64,000 bases of DNA from Escherichia coli (GTDB lineage Bacteria > Pseudomonadota > Gammaproteobacteria > Enterobacterales > Enterobacteriaceae). Positions 1 to 50,024 of the stretch are shown here, piece by piece. The translations under genes were made by a program, and so were the position numbers. Every line of letters starts with the position of its first letter. Positions within the stretch are counted from its first letter, which is position 1. The stretch lies in the NCBI RefSeq assembly GCF_013315695.1, contig NZ_CP054353.1; one strand, given 5' to 3'. The notes under the pieces are model-generated. The model saw nothing but the letters and a program-made list of their open reading frames with translations, did not search any database and was not told the DNA's origin.

Positions 1-11
1 GAATCCCCCCG

Positions 12-1067
12 TTAACCAATTTTGACGGTAACAAATTTGCGAATATCTGCCGGAACCGGCTGCGGTGCGCTGTGCGTCTGCACGTACTCAATCGCCGGAT
101 CGCCGTCCTCAATCCAGTTTTTCGGGTAAAACATGTTTTGCGTTGCGCCCGTTCTTACCGCTTCCTGTTCCAGGATCGCACCATAGGCCACCAGCCCTTT
201 ATTGTTGGTGTTGCCCAGGACCAGCAAATCAGGCTCAAGGAAATATTTTTCTGTGCCGTCGCTGTCAGTGTATTTGCCGGAATAGACGATAAGGGCCAGA
301 TCACCAAGATAGCCTTTAAAGCTCACCACTTCGCCCAGGTTTTTACATGCCAGCTCTGCGGCGGATTCTGAACCACGGGAGAGATCGTACAGTTCACGGA
401 ATTTTTTAAAGCTGCGTAACATGCGCCATACATCAACGCCCATAATCATGACGTTTGCGGGGCAACCTGCCTGATCTGCGTATAGCTCAATGTCATAGAT
501 TGGGTCGTGTATGTCTTTGTCCTGCTCTGACCATTTTTTACCGTCGGCCTGCTCTATGATGTTTTTTTCCGGTATCTTCCAGTCGATTTCATAGCGCTCT
601 ATGCCTTCGCCCTCAATGATGTTTTTTCCGGTCGTTACCGCATTTACCGCCAGCCATTCCACGCGCGCTTTAATGGCGTTTATCTGGCGGCGCATGTTGC
701 CAGTAATCAGGCGCATACGGCGGTAGGTAGGGTCGTTAAGCTGTGCTGGATCTTCTCCAGCCATGCGCATTATTGTTTTTAATGGATCGATTTCGTGTTT
801 TGGCTTCATGTAGCCAGGGCGAATAATGCTTGTTTCGTACCCTTTATCGCGCTGAACCTGGCTACCCACCATAGGCGAACAAAACGCCGACATAGTGACT
901 TCTTCAATATCCAGGTTATCTAACATGATGTCCTGTGTGTTGAATGTCGCCACGTTCGGGAAAAACAGCGCGGTAAACAGCGGACTGAATTTAAATTCCG
1001 CAATATCCTCGCGATTCAGGTACGCAAAAAGCTGGTTAGTGTTAAGTGCTATTGCTTTTACTGTCAT
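12..1067 (-). CDS. Major capsid protein, lambda gpE-like family
   Basis: A 351-aa ORF whose length and sequence character fit the phage major capsid protein E family. Its start overlaps the stop of the upstream small ORF, and it lies in a separately promoted operon. Confidence 0.75.
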   Translation of the reverse strand: MTVKAIALNTNQLFAYLNREDIAEFKFSPLFTALFFPNVATFNTQDIMLDNLDIEEVTMSAFCSPMVGSQVQRDKGYETSIIRPGYMKPKHEIDPLKTIMRMAGEDPAQLNDPTYRRMRLITGNMRRQINAIKARVEWLAVNAVTTGKNIIEGEGIERYEIDWKIPEKNIIEQADGKKWSEQDKDIHDPIYDIELYADQAGCPANVMIMGVDVWRMLRSFKKFRELYDLSRGSESAAELACKNLGEVVSFKGYLGDLALIVYSGKYTDSDGTEKYFLEPDLLVLGNTNNKGLVAYGAILEQEAVRTGATQNMFYPKNWIEDGDPAIEYVQTHSAPQPVPADIRKFVTVKIG

Positions 1068-1273
1068 TATTCACCCCCGTGAACCTGATTCATACCCAGC
1101 GCCGCGCGTAAATAGGCGCGTACCTGCCAGCCTGTTGACGGCTCAACCATCGCCAGCGGATCAAGTCCTGCCGCAATGCCTGCTTTTACGTTCTGCTGGT
1201 GGCGTTCCTTGAGCGCCTTCACGATGTCGGGGCTTATGTACACCGAAACACCGCCTTTTTTCTCTTCAGCCAT
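1067..1273 (-). CDS. Hypothetical 68-aa protein, first gene of the capsid operon
   Basis: An ORF with an AGAGGA Shine-Dalgarno upstream, translationally coupled to the capsid gene. I recognise no family. Confidence 0.5.
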   Translation of the reverse strand: MAEEKKGGVSVYISPDIVKALKERHQQNVKAGIAAGLDPLAMVEPSTGWQVRAYLRAALGMNQVHGGE

Positions 1274-1302
1274 AGTAAGAAATTCCTCTTTGACTTAAAA
1301 AA

Positions 1303-1357
1303 TCATAACTGGATGTTCATCCAGTTATGATTATAATCATGATTGCATTTTGTGCAA
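1303..1357 (-). promoter_or_regulatory. Candidate late-operon promoter (-35 TTGCAC 1352-1357, 16-nt spacer, perfect -10 TATAAT 1330-1335) with a 28-bp palindromic operator (1303-1330)
   Basis: TCATAACTGGATG-tt-CATCCAGTTATGA has perfect 13-bp arms and lies immediately downstream of the -10, over the predicted start site. It overlaps the 14-bp palindrome ATGATTATAATCAT (1327-1340). Confidence 0.45.
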
Positions 1358-1437
1358 TGATATTGAGTTGCGTTGCAAATTATGAAATTATTATCCCGAT
1401 CATGTGTGTCAGTGCACCAAAAAACCTCATATGCAAA

Positions 1438-1476
1438 AGCCCGATAAGCCACCTCTGACCTTATCGGGCTTTTTTT
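1438..1476. terminator. Rho-independent terminator hairpin (bidirectional appearance)
   Basis: An 11-bp stem AGCCCGATAAG/CTTATCGGGCT with a T-run on the plus side and an A-run on the other side. Confidence 0.55.
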
Positions 1477-1482
1477 GGGCGC

Positions 1483-1506
1483 AAAAAAGCCGGATTGCTC
1501 CGGCTG
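1483..1506 (-). terminator. Rho-independent terminator after the PerC-like gene
   Basis: On the minus strand the stem AGCCGGA/TCCGGCT is followed by TTTTTT, about 20 nt after the stop at 1528. Confidence 0.6.
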
Positions 1507-1527
1507 TGTGGTGTGGTTCTGGTATTC

Positions 1528-1776
1528 CTACTCTGCTAATTTGCTCAGCCCCATGTCTGCGTAAGTGCGATTTACTGCATTTCTCAGGTCTGCATAGTTC
1601 TCCGTTGGCGGCTCCGGTGGCCTCTGTGCCTTCCTGGAACATTCCAGCCGTCGCATCGTGATGTGATGCCGTTCCTTGTCTGTCTCCACCAGCATCATGA
1701 CTTCACCCCATCGCGCCGCCGCCCTCCGGTAAAATCCTTTCGCTTCGAGTTCTTCCGCTATGCGGTCATGTACCAT
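1528..1776 (-). CDS. PerC-family transcriptional activator-like protein (82 aa from internal Met)
   Basis: The N-terminus MVHDRIAEELEAKGFYRRAAARWGEVM matches the LE-KG-YRRAA-RW signature I associate with PerC/Pch proteins. The longer track ORF overlaps ssb and is unlikely to be real. Confidence 0.5.
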   Translation of the reverse strand: MVHDRIAEELEAKGFYRRAAARWGEVMMLVETDKERHHITMRRLECSRKAQRPPEPPTENYADLRNAVNRTYADMGLSKLAE

Positions 1777-1786
1777 CGTCACCCCC

Positions 1787-2197
1787 TCAGAACGGAATAT
1801 CATCACCGTAAGGGTCATCGCCTCCCGCTGGTGGCTGATTACCCTGTGCGCCTGTGGTTTTGCGTCTGTTCCCGCCAGGACGTGCCGCACGGGCACTGAT
1901 TACGCTGTCTGCAATAACCTGATAACCCTGACGCGTCTCCCCGTTCTGTCCGGTCCACTGGCTTACCTGCATCGTGCCGGATACGCTGGCAACGTCGCCT
2001 TTTTGATGTTTAGCCAGGAAGTCGGCCTGCTTACCAAATGCGATGACCGATAGCCATAACGTCGCCTGTCCGTCCTGTGCCTGACTGCATGGCAGTGATA
2101 CCGCCATACGCGCCAGCGTCATCGGTGTGCCCTTGCTGGTCTGTTTTACCTGCGGGTCGTCCACCAGCCGACCGTAAGCCGCTATCTGTGCTGTCAT
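1787..2197 (-). CDS. ssb: Single-stranded DNA-binding protein
   Basis: A 136-aa protein with an OB-fold-like N-terminus, a Gly/Pro-rich linker and the canonical acidic C-terminal tip DDIPF. Confidence 0.85.
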   Translation of the reverse strand: MTAQIAAYGRLVDDPQVKQTSKGTPMTLARMAVSLPCSQAQDGQATLWLSVIAFGKQADFLAKHQKGDVASVSGTMQVSQWTGQNGETRQGYQVIADSVISARAARPGGNRRKTTGAQGNQPPAGGDDPYGDDIPF

Positions 2198-2457
2198 GAT
2201 TCCACCTCTCCGGTTTTAACGTTGATGGTTGTTACCTGTTCCGCTTCGGCAATCTCCCGTTCTGTCAGCGTGGCAAAGTTTGCCGCCGCCGTGGTCATGA
2301 ATGCGCTTATCAGGTCGGGATGTTCCTTCGCGTATCCTTCCCGCGTGTGGCGGTCTATCGTTCTGATTGCCACCTTTAAGGTGTGCTCAGTCATGTCTAA
2401 CGCTTTATATTTTGGCTCTGTTCTGTCTCTGCGTGTTCTGGTCATTTGCCACCTCAA
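2194..2457 (-). CDS. Hypothetical 87-aa protein
   Basis: An ORF whose stop overlaps the ssb start (ATGA coupling), immediately downstream of the origin region. Confidence 0.45.
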   Translation of the reverse strand: MRWQMTRTRRDRTEPKYKALDMTEHTLKVAIRTIDRHTREGYAKEHPDLISAFMTTAAANFATLTEREIAEAEQVTTINVKTGEVES

Positions 2458-2477
2458 TTTATATATATAGAAACATG

Positions 2478-2793
2478 TGCGGGTTATGCGGGTTATTGGG
2501 TTATCTTAGCGTGCTAACCATTTTTTATCCTTTTATATCAGTATTTTGCAAAACACCCTGTTTATTATTTGCCCACCACGTAACCCGCAAAACGCTCAAA
2601 ATAACCCGCAAACGGGGTTTTTTCTGCGGGTTACGCATGACTGTCCGGTGTTACTTCAGTTATTCGCCTGCGGGTTATAATCGTGCTTTTGCGGGTTATA
2701 AATGCCCTTTTGCGGGTTACGTGCGGGTTATTGGTTTCCTTTATATTCATGCACTTAATACACTTATACACAGGATAACCCGCATAACCCGCA
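2478..2793. repeat. Replication-origin iteron array: 11 copies of TGCGGGTTA(T/C) in both orientations, with flanking AT-rich tracts
   Basis: Plus-orientation copies start at 2478, 2488, 2625, 2669, 2690, 2711 and 2722. Complement-orientation copies are at 2581, 2601, 2775 and 2785. AT-rich stretches lie at 2455-2475 and 2521-2570, directly downstream of the primase/helicase gene. Confidence 0.7.
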
Positions 2794-2815
2794 ATTTTTT
2801 TCCTCACACAGGGGA

Positions 2816-4954
2816 TTAATCTTCATCATCAGGCTGGAACATCAGCACGTAAAAAACATGCTGCTTACCCCCAATCTTGCCCAGCGCCTTTTTTTTGTAT
2901 CGGCGATCGCTTCCCTTCTCCAGCATTCCGGCAGCATCCAGGGCACGCGCAAAATGCGCCGGATTAAATCCCTTCGCTATCTCACTCTCAAACACGTGCG
3001 GGAACGTGTAATAGCGCATCTCGTCATCTTCGTTGCGAATGCTCCCTTTTCTGTATCCGGCAAGCTCTTTAATCGGTAAATCACGCTCATCTGTATTGGG
3101 GTACGGAAGGTAGCGGCTAAACCCAAACGACGACAAAAACGCCTCAGCCTGTTCAACCATCTGTTTAAATTCCCTGTTACCCGTGCCGAACTCCTTCACC
3201 CAGGCATTAAAGTTATGCTGTATCGCGTCGCGGCATTCCTGCACGACCCAGCCAGTTACATGACCGGAAAGCACAAGCGCGGCCTCCAGTATGGCGAAAC
3301 GTTCACCCACGCGGTGGACCTGCTCGCCGTAGCTCTCCGGTATCAGGTTGCGCCACCGTTCGCGGCATTCCCTTACCGTATCCTTTGCCTCCTGCTGGTG
3401 GCCTGCCAGCCATTTAACCCACTCACGACCCGCCGCCCCGTGATTTGCTGTCCAGGCATCCTTTAACGCGTCAGCATGTTCCTTACCGTTGCTGTATTCG
3501 TGAAATTTCGTGGCTTTTTCCATCGGAACGTTAAGCAGTCGGACAAGCTGCCCCGCCTTAACTTTTATCCCCTCACTTTTGAGGAATGTCTCAACGTCCA
3601 TTTCTCCGGTGCTGATTGCCACCGTTCGCCAGTGTTTGATCTCCCTGTTGCCGCCATCCTTCGCCCCCTGCAATTTCCCTGAACCGTTAAACAGCGTATA
3701 AGCAGACGTTGACACTTCCCGCGCATTTCCGGCCTGGCCTATCTCATCCAGTGGTAAAAGCCCGTCATTATGGGCCTCGGCCTCATTGGCAATACCTAAC
3801 GCCGTGCCGTACCAGGTCAGCCGCTGCGCGTCCGGCTCTCCCCATAAACTTGATGCGATGTTCTGCGTGGTGGTCTTACCTGCCGATGACTGTTCGAAAA
3901 GATGCACCCCGAAGCCGTCAGCACCCACAAGGCCAATTAAAGGCGCTGCCAGTGACGTTGCCACACCCAGCATCATTGAGGCATTACCGCCAGCCAGCCG
4001 CGCCACACTCTCGCGCCAGCCCTCCGCCGTACCCGCCACGGAATAACCGTTAATCGCGGCGCTTTTTCCGGTAAACAGGATCGGTTTTTCAGAATCACCA
4101 ATGATCGAACCGTCCGGCATGATGTACGCGCCAAAATGCCAGCCCGTTGTTGTGCTTAACTGCCATTCCTCATGGCTTCCGCTTAACTGCATCCAGTCCG
4201 CCAGGATTGCCCTGTATTTGCCGTTGGTTGTCACGTTCAGCCCGTGATCTTTAAGTAACCGCCAGCCGTCACGGTCGCCGATACCACCACACGGGATCGC
4301 CATTGTGATGACTTCATGATTTGCTAATTTTTTCCAGCGCATGACGCGGTAATGCTCTTTACCGATCGTCCCCGTTCCCAGTAGTTCAAGCGGAGAACAT
4401 AACCACGTCTCAGGCCGGATAATTTCGCCTGACTGCTTATCCACTTTGGGCGTTACCCAGAAAACACCATCGGCGCGACTTTCAACGCGTGGCTTTAATT
4501 CGTCATCGCTATGGCTTCCGGTATCTTTTTTCTTTACCGGAAACTCAATAACCAGACCATCAGAAAGATTCTGCCGCTCACGGGCCAGATATTCGCGCCA
4601 GTTCTCCACCTCCTGACCGTGCATTCCATCAGGGTAAAAATTTGCATCCTGTACGCCTGCCGCCGCCAGCTTCTGACCAATCGCCTTGATCATTACTGGC
4701 TCAAGATGTCCGGCCCTGAATATGCGTACTGATTTTCGGCCTTCCGGCACAATTTGCAGCTTATCCAGTTCGGCAAGTTGTTGCTCTCCAAGCCAGACAG
4801 GAGGCACGTTATCGCCAGCCAGTCGCCCGTCCTGTTCCTGCCACTGTTTCGCATGTGCCCAGGCATCACTACCCGCAAAAATGATGACTTCCGTCATTTT
4901 GTCACGTGGCTGGTGTTTTAAATTTGGCGCTTTTTTCATTTCTGCTCTCTCCAC
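2816..4954 (-). CDS. Satellite replication protein: primase/helicase (TOPRIM-like N-terminus plus DUF927-type P-loop domain)
   Basis: A 712-aa ORF with Walker A SSAGKTTT and a Walker B-like LLPLDEIG. It has the size and position typical of P4-alpha/PICI Pri-Rep proteins. Confidence 0.75.
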   Translation of the reverse strand: MERAEMKKAPNLKHQPRDKMTEVIIFAGSDAWAHAKQWQEQDGRLAGDNVPPVWLGEQQLAELDKLQIVPEGRKSVRIFRAGHLEPVMIKAIGQKLAAAGVQDANFYPDGMHGQEVENWREYLARERQNLSDGLVIEFPVKKKDTGSHSDDELKPRVESRADGVFWVTPKVDKQSGEIIRPETWLCSPLELLGTGTIGKEHYRVMRWKKLANHEVITMAIPCGGIGDRDGWRLLKDHGLNVTTNGKYRAILADWMQLSGSHEEWQLSTTTGWHFGAYIMPDGSIIGDSEKPILFTGKSAAINGYSVAGTAEGWRESVARLAGGNASMMLGVATSLAAPLIGLVGADGFGVHLFEQSSAGKTTTQNIASSLWGEPDAQRLTWYGTALGIANEAEAHNDGLLPLDEIGQAGNAREVSTSAYTLFNGSGKLQGAKDGGNREIKHWRTVAISTGEMDVETFLKSEGIKVKAGQLVRLLNVPMEKATKFHEYSNGKEHADALKDAWTANHGAAGREWVKWLAGHQQEAKDTVRECRERWRNLIPESYGEQVHRVGERFAILEAALVLSGHVTGWVVQECRDAIQHNFNAWVKEFGTGNREFKQMVEQAEAFLSSFGFSRYLPYPNTDERDLPIKELAGYRKGSIRNEDDEMRYYTFPHVFESEIAKGFNPAHFARALDAAGMLEKGSDRRYKKKALGKIGGKQHVFYVLMFQPDDED

Positions 4955-5235
4955 GCGGCAATCATGTTTTTCAGTTCCTGTAGTTTTTTATCCACATCCA
5001 CACGTGACACATGGTTATTTCTGGAAGTCGGGATTTCCCGCCTGAATCTGCTAATAAAGATCTCCACGTTCAGCGAACTATGAAATGAATAGCCATCACG
5101 AATAAAATACACACGGTCAAACATCAGTTCTTTTACCGTTACTCTGTTGCCGTTCTTATCCAGATAAATAGCGCCGGGGATAATTTTGGGGTGTGCATAA
5201 CCGCTGGCAGTCAAGCCAGATAAATATGTTCTCAT
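4936..5235 (-). CDS. Hypothetical 99-aa protein
   Basis: An ORF in the same operon whose end overlaps the primase start. No family recognised. Confidence 0.5.
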   Translation of the reverse strand: MRTYLSGLTASGYAHPKIIPGAIYLDKNGNRVTVKELMFDRVYFIRDGYSFHSSLNVEIFISRFRREIPTSRNNHVSRVDVDKKLQELKNMIAAWREQK

Positions 5236-5241
5236 GATTAT

Positions 5242-5562
5242 TTATCCCCGATTTGAATCAGTATTCGCTTTCTTTATAGCATTTAATGCATTTGTGGCAT
5301 TTTCAATGGTGCACCGTAACGAAATATCAAACTGCCCAAGCATTGCCAGTAACAAACCGATATTACCCATATCAATGCGCATGGCCTTTTCGTCATATTC
5401 CTCATTTTCTGACGCATACCACATCAGGCTACCAATTGACGCAATACCCATTGATATATTGTCAGTAGCCCCATCCGCAGCGGAATAAACTTTTTTAGCA
5501 ATATCATGCTCACAGTTAAAATGCGGATTAATCAGGTACTGGTAATTGGTCATGTCAGGCAT
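5242..5562 (-). CDS. Hypothetical 106-aa protein
   Basis: An ORF tightly packed between its neighbours. No family recognised. Confidence 0.5.
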   Translation of the reverse strand: MPDMTNYQYLINPHFNCEHDIAKKVYSAADGATDNISMGIASIGSLMWYASENEEYDEKAMRIDMGNIGLLLAMLGQFDISLRCTIENATNALNAIKKANTDSNRG

Positions 5563-5758
5563 GGCACACCCCCTGACGAATACGGGCGGCGAATACCATC
5601 ACGCAGCCAGCCGGGGATTGCTGGCGTGCTTCCTGTTCGCTGCTGGCCTCAATGGTAATCACGCGCGGTTGTGCCGTGCTCAGGGCGATAAAACGCCAGA
5701 TGTATTTATTCAGGTTGTGCGAGTCCCGCCCTTGCGGGTGTGTGGTATGATTTAACAT
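5555..5758 (-). CDS. Small 67-aa protein, possibly Icd-like (cell-division inhibitor family often annotated in P4-like islands)
   Basis: Only the C-terminal 67 codons (from the ATG at 5758) of the 335-aa track ORF are plausible. The pattern IWRF..A..(n)EQEAR..(n)VFAARI resembles Icd-like proteins, but I assign this from memory only. Confidence 0.35.
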   Translation of the reverse strand: MLNHTTHPQGRDSHNLNKYIWRFIALSTAQPRVITIEASSEQEARQQSPAGCVMVFAARIRQGVCHA

Positions 5759-5839
5759 AGCTACCTCGATACTGTTGCTATCGTTGGTTGTTAGACGCCC
5801 TGCATGTGTTGCGAGCACTGCGGGGCGTTGCTCTTTCAG

Positions 5840-5885
5840 GTGTATTTCACCTTTGCTTTTTAATTTACTCACTGGTGAAATACAC
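5840..5885. promoter_or_regulatory. 12-bp perfect inverted repeat GTGTATTTCACC / GGTGAAATACAC separated by 22 bp, in the divergent control region
   Basis: Seen directly in the sequence. It lies between the leftward early operon (start 5758) and the rightward RHH gene (start 5952). Confidence 0.4.
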
Positions 5886-5951
5886 TTCAAGCCTTTTTTT
5901 ATCATTTTTTTTGCGTATACTGACATACACCAATTTTTAGGAGATCCAGAA

Positions 5952-6131
5952 ATGGCAACTGGTGCAAAGAACGCAAAATCACAAATGACAACTGTCAGAA
6001 TCCCACATGAAGTAATGGATGATATTGAGCAACTTAAAGAACCTGGCGAAAGTACCGCTGGTTTTTTAGTTACTGCCGCAAAAGGCGAGATCAAACGCCG
6101 CCAGCGCCGCAAGGCCAAAGAATCAGAATAA
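5952..6131 (+). CDS. Ribbon-helix-helix (CopG/Arc-like) small DNA-binding protein, 59 aa
   Basis: An AGGAG Shine-Dalgarno lies upstream. TTVRIPHEVMDDIEQL fits the RHH beta-strand plus helix pattern, and the tail is basic. Confidence 0.45.
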   Translation: MATGAKNAKSQMTTVRIPHEVMDDIEQLKEPGESTAGFLVTAAKGEIKRRQRRKAKESE

Positions 6132-6188
6132 TCACTATCAGCGCCGTGGCGTGAGGTACTCCGGCGCATTGCTTTACAGGTCAGTACT

Positions 6189-6398
6189 ATGAGCAAAAAA
6201 CACCGATCAGCAGATGAGATTTTTGCAGAACAACGAAGATTGCTTTTGCAAAGTATCATTTCACGCCAGCAAGAGAAGGCGCGAGCTAAACAAATGCCAC
6301 CAAATACAGAACCAGCGCCTACAAGATTTGCGCTTGATGATTTTCTCGATAAACACCCCAGGGTAATGAAAGCAAACAAAAACCGCCCACCAGCCTGA
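6189..6398 (+). CDS. Hypothetical 69-aa basic protein
   Basis: An ORF following the RHH gene on the same strand, ended by the terminator at 6442-6469. Confidence 0.4.
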   Translation: MSKKHRSADEIFAEQRRLLLQSIISRQQEKARAKQMPPNTEPAPTRFALDDFLDKHPRVMKANKNRPPA

Positions 6399-6441
6399 TA
6401 GCGGCTATCATCCCCGTGCTTATGTTTAGTGTTTCCAAACT

Positions 6442-6469
6442 GGCGACCTCCCAAGGTCGCCTTTTTTTT
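6442..6469 (+). terminator. Rho-independent terminator
   Basis: The stem GGCGACC/GGTCGCC is followed by T8. Confidence 0.65.
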
Positions 6470-6488
6470 ATGTGCCATTGTCACCACC

Positions 6489-6698
6489 TCAAGCGGCCTT
6501 GCCTGAATTAATGCGTTCGCGGTTTTTGACCCACGCCACAACCTCAGACTTAACCCAGCCAACAGAACGACCGCCGAGACTGATACGGGAGGGGAAGCGG
6601 CCCTGCTTTTCCATCTCGTAACGAGTTGTGCGGCAAACGCCTGTTAGCTCTCTGCATTCTTTTTCGCGGATTACGCGATCTTCATTTATTTCACGCAT
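6489..6698 (-). CDS. alpA: AlpA-family (MerR-like HTH) prophage/satellite regulator, 69 aa
   Basis: MREINEDRVIREKECRELTGVCRTTRYEMEKQGRFP has the typical AlpA HTH. It lies next to the integrase on the same strand. Confidence 0.75.
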   Translation of the reverse strand: MREINEDRVIREKECRELTGVCRTTRYEMEKQGRFPSRISLGGRSVGWVKSEVVAWVKNRERINSGKAA

Positions 6699-7107
6699 AC
6701 AAAAACCTACATAAAAATTACGTATATAAACTTTTCTCTTAGCTGTAGATATATGAGATCGGATATTACTTAGATTCTTTTTCACCTCTTAAATTAAAAA
6801 CACAACCATGCTAAAGGCTTTGTTCGCTAAGGTTCGTAGAAGCTCGTTAGTGTTTAAAATCGTGTCACGAGTTTTTAAGCGACGCAACAAAAAATGTCGT
6901 TATTTGGCATGACACCTGAATTACCTCATTAAAAACAAATAGATAAACCATCAGGTGTTGGAACAATCAAGAAACAGAGAATAAGAACTAAGAAGAAGAC
7001 ATTTCAAATTTTTTCAATACTTGACACATATAAATCGTCGATATTTGCCGATATTCGACGATTTATTTTAGAGGGCCATTTTTCGCAAGAAAAACAGCCG
7101 TAATTTG

Positions 7108-38892: not shown

Positions 38893-40884
38893 TCAGAAGC
38901 GATAATCCACTGCCATAAAGTAACGACGTCCGTCTTCGTTATAGCTGTAGTCGTCACGACTGAGATCCTTGTCGCCAAGGTTCAGCACGCCTGCGCGCAG
39001 TTTGACGTCTTTAGTTACCTGCCAGGCCGCACCGGTATTCCAGATGGTATAACCGCCCGGTGTTTTAGCCGTCGCGCTGTCGGCGCGTTTCTGCCCGGTA
39101 TAGTGACCAGAAACATAGAATGACCAGTCTTCCAGCGCCAGCGGTTTCCAGTCCAGCGTACCGTTAGCAGTATGGAACGGCAGATCGGATAGCGGTTTGT
39201 TTTCGCCGTTGCTGACATCACGACCATCGTTGTAGGTGTAGTTGAGTGACAGTTTCCATTCATCGTTGAACGGAATTTTCAGCTCGGTTTCCACGCCCTG
39301 AATACGTGCTTTGTTAACGTTGTAGTAGCTGAATACCGGTATGCGCCGTCCGTTAGCGCCCGTCTCAAAACCGACAAAGTTTTGGTAGCCCGGTGCAGCA
39401 TTGACGTCAGACGTACGGCTGATGCTGATGCGATCTTTCACATCGTTACGGAAAACGGTAACGCTGGACTCCACCCCTTCCAGCCAGCCTTCTTCACCCA
39501 TGTAGTAAAGCCCCAGCTCCCAACTTTCGCTGGTTTCTGGTTTCAGATCCGGGCTACCCACAATCTTACATGCGCCACGGCAGGAATTGCTCGTCCAGTC
39601 AGGGCTAAGTTGCAACAGAGAAGGCGCTTTAAATGCCGTCGCCCAGCCCCCTTTCACCGTTACGGTGTCGGTGGCGTTATAAACCAGGTAGGCACGCGGA
39701 CTCCAGTGTTCACCGTAGGTTTCATGATCGTCCATACGTACGCCGGTCGTCAGCGCCAGCGGCTCGAAGATCCGCCATTCATCTTCCACAAACAGCGCGT
39801 ACTGGCTGGCAGATGTTTTGGAGCTGGTTCCCCCTGTCAGGTTCACCTCATCGCTAAGTTTGTCGTGACGCCATTCACCGCCAACCGTGAGAAACTGATT
39901 AATCGCCGTTAACGGCAACGTGTATTTGCCGTCGACCGTATTGCTTTCGGAAGTTATCGGGCTGCTGTTGCCGGGGTTTTTGTTCTCGACTTTCTCACCG
40001 TAGTATTTCAGTTCGCTGGTGCCGTAATCCCAACGCCCATTATGGCTAACGGAGTAGTTCTGGCGTTCCAGGCGGTTTTTGTCCAGCGAGTCGGAATCAC
40101 GATCCTGACGGTCGAAACCGTATCCGGCAGTAAAATCGTGATTTTGATTCGGTGTCCAGGCAAATTCGACATTGCCGTCGCGGCTGGAGAATCCTTCAAT
40201 ACGCGGCGTTTCTCCGGTATCGGTGGTCGTTGAGTTTTGCGGGTCATCCTTTTCACGTTTTGCCAGGCTGCCGTAAGCTTTCATTCCCAGCACGCCGTCA
40301 ATTAATGGTCCGCTGGTAAAGAACTGACCGTTATAGGTATCACCGCGATCGCGATGTTCCTGAACGGTGGTATCGACGGTAACGGTGCCCGACCATTTCT
40401 GACCGATTTTTTTGGTGATGATATTCACTACACCGCCGAGCGCATCGGAACCGTACAGCGACGACATCGGACCACGGACCACTTCAATACGTTCGATGGA
40501 ATCGACCGGGATCCAGTTCAGATCGAAATCATTGTGGCGGAAGACGGCATTGCGGGAGTTAACGCGTTTACCGTCGACAAGAATCAGGGTGTAGCTGCTG
40601 TCCAGACCACGAATACTTACGCCCTTACGGTTATCCCCTTCGTTCGTCAGTTGTACGCCAGGCACTTCTTTGAGGACATCCTTCAGATTCTGTACCGGTT
40701 TTCGCTGCAGGTCTTCCTAGGTAATGACGCTGATACTGGCGGGTGCATCTTTAAGGTTTTGCTCAACGGAAGATGCAGTGACAACCATCGTTTCGCCATC
40801 ATCATCGACCGCTAACACAGGCCATGCACAAGAAATAGCGGACAAACACAGCCCGACCCGTACGAAAGGGTTCAACCTAAACAT
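38893..40884 (-). pseudogene. cirA: cirA (catecholate-siderophore / colicin I receptor) interrupted by an in-frame amber codon at codon 56
   Basis: Translating from the ATG at 40884 gives [55 protein letters not shown], then TAG (40717-40719) where K-12 has Gln, then [12 protein letters not shown]. The track ORF (590 aa) lacks the signal peptide and TonB box. Confidence 0.85.
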
Positions 40885-41053
40885 TCCATATCTCCATGAG
40901 GTAACTACGAAAATAAAATGGGTTATCGCTCACATCTTCTTCATGTCCCCTTGCGTACGGCAGCATCGCGGTGGACTTATTTGTATGCAGGTGATCATCC
41001 CAGAAAGCCGGAACAGCCTCTGATTTGTCAGCCTTTTTTGATTGCGGCGTAAC

Positions 41054-41078
41054 GATAATGCAAACGATAACAATTATC
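41054..41078. promoter_or_regulatory. Fur box in the cirA promoter region
   Basis: GATAATGcaaacGATAACAATTATC closely resembles the GATAATGATAATCATTATC consensus. Confidence 0.6.
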
Positions 41079-41129
41079 AATCCAAATGTTAAATTTTATA
41101 TCCGCATGATTTGTCAGGGAAATGGAATT

Positions 41130-49326: not shown

Positions 49327-49602
49327 GTGGCTTCTGTTTCTATCAGCTGTCCCTCCTGTTCAGCTACTGACGGGGTGGTGCGTAACGGCAAAAGCACCGC
49401 CGGACATCAGCGCTATCTCTGCTCTCACTGCCGTAAAACATGGCAACTGCAGTTCACTTACACCGCTTCTCAACCCGGTACGCACCAGAAAATCATTGAT
49501 ATGGCCATGAATGGCGTTGGATGCCGGGCAACAGCCCGCATTATGGGCGTTGGCCTCAACACGATTTTACGTCACTTAAAAAACTCAGGCCGCAGTCGGT
49601 AA
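49327..49602 (+). CDS. insA: IS1 InsA
   Basis: A 91-aa protein starting [32 protein letters not shown]. Confidence 0.95.
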
Positions 49603-50024
49603 CCTCGCGCATACAGCCGGGCAGTGACGTCATCGTCTGCGCGGAAATGGACGAACAGTGGGGCTATGTCGGGGCTAAATCGCGCCAGCGCTGGCTGTTT
49701 TACGCGTATGACAGGCTCCGGAAGACGGTTGTTGCGCACGTATTCGGTGAACGCACTATGGCGACGCTGGGGCGTCTTATGAGCCTGCTGTCACCCTTTG
49801 ACGTGGTGATATGGATGACGGATGGCTGGCCGCTGTATGAATCCCGCCTGAAGGGAAAGCTGCACGTAATCAGCAAGCGATATACGCAGCGAATTGAGCG
49901 GCATAACCTGAATCTGAGGCAGCACCTGGCACGGCTGGGACGGAAGTCGCTGTCGTTCTCAAAATCGGTGGAGCTGCATGACAAAGTCATCGGGCATTAT
50001 CTGAACATAAAACACTATCAATAA
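49521..50024 (+). CDS. insB: IS1 InsB reading frame (expressed as InsAB' by -1 frameshift)
   Basis: A 167-codon frame overlapping the insA 3' end, with the slippery run TTAAAAAAC. Confidence 0.9.

Follow-up and report, generated by a model that had tools for sequence, protein, structure and literature searches.

Amber hotspots at the 5-methylcytosines of Dcm sites (CCWGG) are said to have been first described in lacI, by Coulondre and Miller in 1978. The base methylated by Dcm in CCAGG is the inner cytosine, and where the site is read in the frame C-CAG-G, the change of CCAGG to CTAGG is the classic deamination route from a glutamine codon to an amber codon. According to PMC9520237, which cites Cherry 2018 for this figure and also summarizes the very-short-patch repair pathway, Dcm inner cytosines mutate from C to T about 8-fold faster in natural Escherichia coli and Salmonella genomes. 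A second group of related observations concerns cirA nulls found in connection with resistance to cefiderocol, colicins and microcins. In E. coli, CirA was reported as 'truncated at 109 aa' in sequence type (ST) 167 and as 'truncated at 621 aa' in ST405, cirA truncation was shown to raise the minimal inhibitory concentration (MIC) of cefiderocol, and complementation lowered the MIC 8- to 16-fold (PMC9241927). In K. pneumoniae, incomplete CirA was found in 1.27% of 55,517 genomes, represented by 189 variants (PMC12054181). The subject of this work is the cirA gene in a 64,000-nucleotide stretch of E. coli DNA (contig NZ_CP054353.1 of assembly GCF_013315695.1), which will be referred to as the window. 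In this gene codon 56, a glutamine codon in intact alleles, has been replaced by an in-frame TAG located in a former Dcm site.

Translation of the minus strand from position 40884 to 38893 yields 663 codons followed by the natural stop; within the frame a single premature stop occurs, at codon 56 (...ASISVIT*EDLQRK...; ...GTC ATT ACC TAG GAA GAC CTG CAG CGA AAA..., the TAG occupying positions 40719 to 40717). Apart from this stop there is no other defect in the reading frame. The identity of the gene is supported by several lines of evidence. In the near-identical genome of strain MSB1_4I the RefSeq cirA gene has the start and the stop matching 40884 and 38893, and is labelled a pseudogene with an internal stop. 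The 590-codon ORF (open reading frame) downstream of the amber codon scored 1301 bits with the NCBIfam CirA equivalog NF007478 (cut-off 745), matching profile positions 74-663. Residues 26-260 are near-identical to PDB entry 2HDF, the crystallised colicin I receptor, and the alignment with 2HDF puts the mature N-terminus at V26, hence Gln56 corresponds to mature residue 31 in the plug. The gene order is lysP-cirA-yeiG as in E. coli, with lysP upstream of cirA and yeiG downstream on the opposite strand. The features of the locus, all on the minus strand, are the following:

38893-40884, minus strand: cirA pseudogene, identified by translation, by coordinates equal to those of the RefSeq cirA coding sequence of MSB1_4I, by the NF007478 profile and by synteny
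40717-40719, minus strand: amber codon TAG in place of Gln56 (CAG), mature residue 31, plug domain; strain MS 21-1 has CAG
40716-40720, minus strand: mutated Dcm site CTAGG (CCAGG in intact alleles), in which T at 40719 replaces the inner cytosine
40720-40884, minus strand: residual N-terminal ORF of 55 codons, comprising the signal peptide (codons 1-25) and 30 mature residues with the TonB box
40774-40794, minus strand: TonB-box region ETMVVTA, residues 31-37, intact by translation, identical to 2HDF residues 7-13
38893-40665, minus strand: downstream ORF of 590 codons with a GTG start, reported by gene callers, without a signal peptide
41052-41092, minus strand: AT-rich promoter region with promoter-like hexamers (two overlapping sigma-70-like matches), the presumed Fur-regulated cirA promoter
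40156-40160, minus strand: second amber-capable Dcm site, GCC TGG, at W243, intact in the window
39022-39026, minus strand: third amber-capable Dcm site, GCC TGG, at W621, intact in the window
39848, minus strand: codon 346 changed from GCG (Ala) to GAG (Glu) (C1037A, A346E), the sole cirA difference from MSB1_4I, found also in six contigs from other sources (see below)

The sequence ETMVVTA is taken to be the TonB box on the basis of established knowledge of Cir. Because it lacks a signal peptide, the 590-codon ORF is predicted to be unable to yield an outer-membrane receptor. Judged from its sequence, the window cirA is thus a pseudogene of the CirA family and not a functional member, no exported polypeptide being expected that would unite the signal peptide, the TonB box, the plug and the 22-strand barrel. 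The initial annotation had proposed that a lone in-frame amber codon replacing Gln56 knocks out cirA, that the start at 40884, the signal peptide and the TonB-box region are intact, and that the same holds for the Fur box and the promoter. The first two of these statements were borne out by the window sequence, its translation and the 2HDF alignment, and the suggested comparison with close relatives revealed CAG at codon 56 of MS 21-1. The third stood in part: the 296 bp upstream of the ATG are identical between the window and MS 21-1, a strain with intact cirA, whereas the strict Fur consensus GATAATGATAATCATTATC had no match with three or fewer mismatches anywhere in the window. It is therefore the upstream identity to an intact strain, not a motif, on which the promoter is judged intact.

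In intact alleles codons 55-57 read ACC CAG GAA and hold CCAGG, a Dcm recognition site. The 64-kb window contains 163 intact CCWGG sites and a single CTAGG derivative, the one at codon 56. A stop codon can be reached in cirA by 213 different single-base changes, of which 54 are transitions and three, at Q56, W243 and W621, are Dcm events. In 50 kb of the window 58 other Dcm sites, belonging to 44 genes, could give an amber codon, and none of them is mutated. Taken together with the recurrence data described below, it is highly probable that codon 56 was truly altered by an inherited C-to-T transition, which affected the inner cytosine of a Dcm site on the coding strand, and that the TAG allele is one that recurs at a mutational hotspot, the loss of cirA being tolerated or episodically favoured. 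The tetranucleotide CTAG is very rare in the window (six occurrences in 64 kb). Depletion of CTAG is known in E. coli and is attributed to very-short-patch repair, with which its rarity in the window fits.

In the proposed course of events Dcm would methylate the inner cytosine of the codon-56 CCAGG, the 5-methylcytosine would deaminate to thymine, and the resulting T:G mismatch would escape Vsr very-short-patch repair, leaving TAG fixed. The dcm-vsr locus, which is outside the window, was found at 80% or higher coverage in 5,358 of 5,426 complete E. coli genomes (98.7%). Translation would end after 55 residues, which cover the signal peptide and TonB box and just the beginning of the plug; almost all of the plug and the entire barrel would be missing, and to judge from the position of the stop no Cir would reach the outer membrane. 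The stop should have no polar effect, as cirA is transcribed as a single-gene unit and yeiG converges on it. From what is established about Cir, the cell would resist colicins Ia/Ib and Cir-dependent microcins, and would have lost one uptake route for catecholate siderophores and cefiderocol as well as a phage receptor.

The change resembles the lacI Dcm ambers and the hypermutation described in Cherry 2018 in that the inner C of CCAGG is altered to give a CTAGG amber in the frame C-CAG-G, and in being recurrent; by analogy, the underlying chemistry would be the same. It is unlike the lacI case in being a standing natural polymorphism, known from sequence alone, in the gene of an outer-membrane receptor and not in a laboratory reporter. 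With the cirA nulls associated with resistance to cefiderocol, colicins and microcins it shares the premature stop, the truncated CirA and the intact promoter. It differs from the reported nulls in the position of the stop at codon 56, in the lack of a link to an NDM or PBP3 background and in its spread over commensal, food-animal and clinical strains. The position of the ST405 truncation described in PMC9241927, 621 aa, is that of the third predicted Dcm site, W621.

Dcm sites are also positions where nanopore sequencing is prone to error. It has been observed that about 95% of the E. coli variants discrepant between Illumina and Oxford Nanopore data fell in CC(A/T)GG, affecting in one case 94 of 13,504 methylated positions (PMC6703438). 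The TAG could thus be a sequencing or assembly artefact, nanopore miscalls at Dcm-methylated CCWGG having recreated the same false variant in unrelated assemblies. In the window one of approximately 164 Dcm sites is mutated, a proportion that would agree with the error rate in PMC6703438, and strain AF14, a close relative, has two further Dcm-site transitions within 12 kb. Systematic Dcm miscalling in the window was considered and set aside: the other 163 CCWGG sites are intact, but this count alone would be compatible with an error rate of about 1%. As the intact sites do not by themselves exclude such a rate, evidence from independent contigs was needed. The exact window allele (TAG56 with C1050A and GAG at codon 346) recurs without a mismatch (100% identity) in six independent contigs of metagenome or SRA origin, ERZ28586315 and ERZ24115487 in ENA, and ERR4229482, SRR8428005, SRR8428032 and SRR25445764 in Logan, at least one of which is a SPAdes-style short-read assembly. 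In all six contigs the 55-aa and 590-aa ORFs were called as separate genes. The substitution A346E, which is private to the window allele, is thus present in all of them. TAG56 is common to three closely related complete genomes (MSB1_4I, AF3 and AF14), and is carried by EC974 and EC1515, whose assemblies were made from PacBio RS II data only. In addition, the allele tracks descent inside its clade, with later substitutions nested upon it, and the exact 55-aa product was found on at least 1000 contigs from NCBI, ENA, JGI and Logan. A sequencing error, which the initial annotation had allowed for, was ruled out by the recurrence of the allele in independent assemblies and in PacBio-only genomes; the base call is reproducible, and the artefact explanation as a whole is left with a very small probability.

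Both AF14 (NZ_OZ546925) and NZ_OZ546911, UK blood isolates belonging to the same clade, have Q56* as well as W243*, and within the 12-kb locus AF14 has yet another Dcm-site transition, its third (CCTGG to CTTGG, alignment column 4001). The extra Dcm changes in these two genomes reflect either continued Dcm-driven decay or residual nanopore error.

The distribution of the allele was determined in complete E. coli genomes, where a genome was counted if it exactly matched a 61-mer centred on the mutated site. The Q56 TAG 61-mer was found in 20 of 5,417 genomes. In the carriers that were fetched cirA is labelled a pseudogene with an internal stop, the rest of the frame being open except in AF14, which has the second stop. 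The 20 carriers form nine haplotype clusters of the 4.2-kb locus, or, conservatively, six deep haplotype groups, which are 134-405 differences per 12 kb apart. Between these six groups the identical tract around the TAG is only 134-452 bp long, and is in a conserved part of the gene. Intact relatives are at hand for the carriers tested: MS 21-1, the closest intact strain, differs from AF3 over 4.2 kb solely by the C/T change, at least 35 intact genomes, including strain ST648, are one mismatch away from the five-member CLSC36 group, and at least 29, including DH5alpha and O104:H4 strains, are one mismatch away from OHT76-1. Among the sources of the carriers are chicken, bovine faeces, pet food and a waste bin.

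The simplest reading of these haplotypes is that TAG56 arose at least six times independently, and the number of origins is probably nine or more. An allele that arose once and was then spread between lineages by homologous recombination could also produce a scattered distribution. Five carriers of the common A/B1-type haplotype share 1.2-5.4 kb of identical sequence around the TAG, and some of these could go back to one event. Between the six deep groups, however, the shared tract is limited to 134-452 bp, for every carrier tested there are genomes with intact cirA from which it is separated, over 2.3-4.2 kb, only by the TAG, and W243*, at the second Dcm site, is similarly scattered. We therefore consider spread from a single origin very unlikely. 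Many shallow independent origins with intact relatives are also a feature of other recurrent natural nulls, among them the ambers of rpoS and the loss of receptors when phages or bacteriocins attack; the likeness is one of pattern only.

Early nonsense alleles of cirA should share the same fitness effect, and differences in frequency between nonsense sites are therefore expected to reflect mainly mutation rate. To the counts of complete genomes, obtained as above, were added counts of contigs carrying the exact truncated protein product in the public collection:

Q56*, Dcm site: 20 complete genomes; at least 1000 contigs
W243*, Dcm site: 19 complete genomes; at least 1000 contigs, and 239 for the I174 variant
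Q60*, non-Dcm transition: 9 complete genomes, five of them from one chicken series; 228 contigs
R61*, non-Dcm transition: 1 complete genome; 238 contigs
Q65*, non-Dcm transition: 3 complete genomes; 210 contigs
Q78*, non-Dcm transition: 318 contigs
W124*, non-Dcm transition: 191 contigs
Q162*, non-Dcm transition: 226 contigs
W164*, non-Dcm transition: 195 contigs
Q42*, non-Dcm transition: 2 contigs

The W243* carriers are AF14 and OZ546911, both of which also have TAG56, and 17 other complete genomes. The per-site excess at the Dcm sites (Q56* and W243* compared with Q60*, R61* and Q65*) is approximately 4.5-fold in complete genomes. N-terminal CirA fragments of 49-57 residues, many of them labelled partial, were represented by 1-77 contigs each. 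The Q42* product (41 aa, CAA to TAA) was found on 2 contigs, whereas the other seven transition products were found on 191-318 each; it may be scarce because very short ORFs are under-called, or because CAA mutates at a lower rate.

These counts bear on the possibility that the TAG is an ordinary C-to-T transition, that the Dcm site is a coincidence without any role of methylation, and that the recurrence reflects strong selection for any cirA null. Alleles outside Dcm sites do recur (Q60* in 9, Q65* in 3 and R61* in 1 complete genome, with 191-318 contigs each), and the excess of Q56 at the lineage level is modest, about 2-fold. Nevertheless, both evaluable Dcm sites are the commonest of the five tested in complete genomes (20 and 19), both Dcm products were found on at least 1000 contigs, whereas none of the eight non-Dcm controls exceeded 318, and the second stop of AF14 and OZ546911 is located exactly at W243, the second of the Dcm sites. 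The Dcm excess relative to ordinary transitions in cirA is, moreover, of a size in line with the figure of about 8-fold that PMC9520237 attributes to Cherry 2018, and falls within the range given there for Dcm sites. On balance, an ordinary transition appears unlikely.

Several points weigh against deamination at a methylated Dcm site as the source of the allele, and against the loss of function ascribed to it. The conservative, lineage-level excess of Q56* over the non-Dcm controls is only about 2-fold, and the numbers of genomes and contigs do not equal numbers of independent events. Nonsense sites outside Dcm sequences are also mutated in cirA, and a non-methylation origin of TAG56 is possible. 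The third Dcm site gives no information either way: the 61-mer flanks of W621* are polymorphic, just 381 genomes were matched, and none of these was mutated. The window strain may have dcm and vsr, to judge from the species-wide genome count, and the predicted loss of function follows from the position of the stop. Taking these points into account, the hotspot effect is supported, but it is not tightly measured.

Were the hotspot alone sufficient, ambers of this kind would be expected in other genes as well. Two C-CAG-G Dcm ambers with fully conserved flanks were tested in neighbouring genes: yeiE Q22* was found in none of 5,425 genomes, and lysP Q219* in none of 5,416 (Fisher p of about 1e-6 for the yeiE and lysP Dcm ambers against cirA Q56*). 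The five cirA nonsense sites tested are, in contrast, mutated in a total of 50 different genomes, or about 0.9% of the complete genomes. Since equivalent Dcm ambers were not seen in neighbouring genes, the hotspot alone is insufficient to explain the recurrence, and loss of CirA appears to be tolerated or episodically favoured. These data support a division of roles in which mutation bias would determine the allele that arises, and tolerance of, or selection for, CirA loss would let it persist. Colicins Ia/Ib, Cir-dependent microcins, phages and drugs are candidate agents.

The relationship of the window to its closest relatives allows the stop to be placed in time. Between the window and MSB1_4I there are 6 differing positions in 50 kb, of which one base is in the 2.3-kb cirA region. 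The cirA alleles can be arranged in a nested order: CAG in MS 21-1, TAG in AF3, TAG with C1050A in MSB1_4I, and TAG with C1050A and C1037A (A346E) in the window and the six contigs. AF14 (TAG with W243* and C965T) forms a side branch. MSB1_4I was obtained from a rectal swab in Australia, AF3 and AF14 from blood cultures in the UK, and several members of the clade come from gut metagenomes. Judged from this order, the stop predates the spread of the clade to Australia, the UK and gut metagenomes, and is neither private to the window nor very recent. Since the stop arose, cirA has acquired four substitutions, and at least two, A346E and W243*, alter the encoded sequence. Four of the nine differences between the window and AF14 in 12 kb are inside cirA (binomial p = 0.047), which is a weak sign of relaxed constraint.

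The initial annotation had interpreted the clean single-codon knockout as a sign of recent selection. Selection or tolerance as such is supported by the absence of Dcm ambers from yeiE and lysP, but the argument from the clean knockout does not hold: the stop is clade-wide and has later substitutions on top of it, and a single-codon lesion has a simpler probable cause, taking into account that the cytosine is the one predicted to be methylated in a Dcm site and that the identical allele is present on at least six unrelated haplotypes. The same data make it highly improbable that the knockout was recently selected by cefiderocol or by another catechol-conjugated antibiotic. Although cirA truncations contribute to cefiderocol resistance in E. 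coli (PMC9241927), here the stop is ancestral to a clade found in Australia, the UK and gut metagenomes and has since been overlaid by other substitutions, carriers of the allele were isolated, among other sources, from chicken, bovine faeces, pet food and a waste bin, and cirA-truncated E. coli had been found before the approval of the drug in China (PMC9241927). Nothing in these observations points to cefiderocol.

The substitutions that followed the stop are also relevant to the question whether the amber codon is suppressed or read through, in which case functional full-length CirA would still be made. A suppressor tRNA might be encoded outside the window, and near-cognate read-through of UAG usually inserts glutamine, and would therefore restore the wild-type protein at a low level. 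However, amber suppressors are rare in natural isolates, and the changes acquired later than the stop, A346E in the window and W243* and C965T in AF14, suggest that constraint has been relaxed. A check for amber suppressors, as suggested in the initial annotation, revealed no tRNA genes within the 64-kb window, which alone was scanned. Continued synthesis of functional CirA is, accordingly, given a probability as low as that of selection by cefiderocol.

The literature search found no paper naming cirA Q56*, and the recurrence of this allele may be unreported. It is a new example of a Dcm hotspot amber and does not represent a new principle. A more far-reaching idea is that the amber-capable Dcm sites at Q56, W243 and W621 constitute a built-in mutational switch, a form of semi-reversible, population-level bet-hedging by receptor loss. 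Methylation-driven deamination would supply Cir-less cells at an increased rate under attack by colicins, microcins or phages that target Cir, and Vsr-biased repair of heteroduplexes formed by recombination with intact alleles would restore CAG preferentially. The Q56 Dcm amber context was found in the cirA gene of only 20 of 80 enterobacterial species and is not conserved beyond coding need; the corresponding numbers are 68 of 80 for W243 and 19 of 79 for W621. As conservation of the Q56 context across species is lacking, the idea is weakened, and we regard both the switch and the cycle of loss and restoration that it would involve as quite unlikely. T-to-C reversion is not known to have a hotspot mechanism. 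An enterobacterial cirA ortholog of 80% identity was also noticed on a 181-kb contig, NZ_JBQPOM010000031, titled Vagococcus sp. WN89Y (a Firmicute). This record is probably contamination or a mislabelled assembly.

The window and its relatives have a number of other features. Positions 1-8513 are occupied by a phage-like island adjoining cspD/yljB, at a place where MSB1_4I has clpS-clpA-serW (tRNA-Ser). The island could be a small prophage or a capsid-encoding satellite, and includes the following genes:

12-1067: major capsid protein E
1787-2197: SSB
2816-4954: DUF927 protein
7108-8346, minus strand: tyrosine integrase

In the region 15293-17529, which is common to the window and MSB1_4I, dusC is followed by an IS110-family element (16504-17529) and then by aqpZ (15293-15989), ybjD and macAB. 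In K-12 the dusC and aqpZ regions are about 1.3 Mb apart, roughly symmetrically about the terminus, and the arrangement suggests a large IS-bounded inversion. Between yohJ and dusC (18770-24780) there is a 3-hydroxybenzoate/gentisate catabolic cluster, presumably absent from K-12, which consists of genes for a LysR regulator, mhbT, gtdA, a gene of the fumarylacetoacetate hydrolase family, maiA and a gene for 3-hydroxybenzoate 6-monooxygenase. A copy of IS1A is located between yeiL and rihB (49327-50024), and contains position 49533, one of the six single-nucleotide differences from MSB1_4I. Plasmid 2 of MSB1_4I (NZ_LR898875) is an IncF plasmid with a cjrABC/senB-like iron-uptake cluster. At 15815-16150 it encodes a lone 111-aa protein, with no adjacent colicin gene, which RefSeq labels 'colicin E1 family microcin immunity protein'. 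This immunity-type protein had no match in NCBIfam; it may resemble the immunity protein of colicin Ia.

As a knockout the allele is ordinary: in this lineage cirA is already labelled a pseudogene in RefSeq, and loss of CirA is a known route to tolerance of colicins and cefiderocol. What the present results add is that Q56* and W243* would be expected among the commonest spontaneous cirA nulls of E. coli, since they arise at cytosines predicted to be methylated, and that W621* is probably a third such allele. Q56* and W243* together are present in about 0.7% of complete genomes (37 of approximately 5,420), in clinical, commensal and food-animal strains, and evidently stand without exposure to cefiderocol. 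Variants at Dcm sites are a known nanopore artefact, and cross-platform confirmation is therefore needed when they are encountered. These findings should be of use for reading cirA variants in genotype-based resistance prediction, and they bear on the speed with which resistance by receptor loss arises under therapy with siderophore drugs, colicins or phages.

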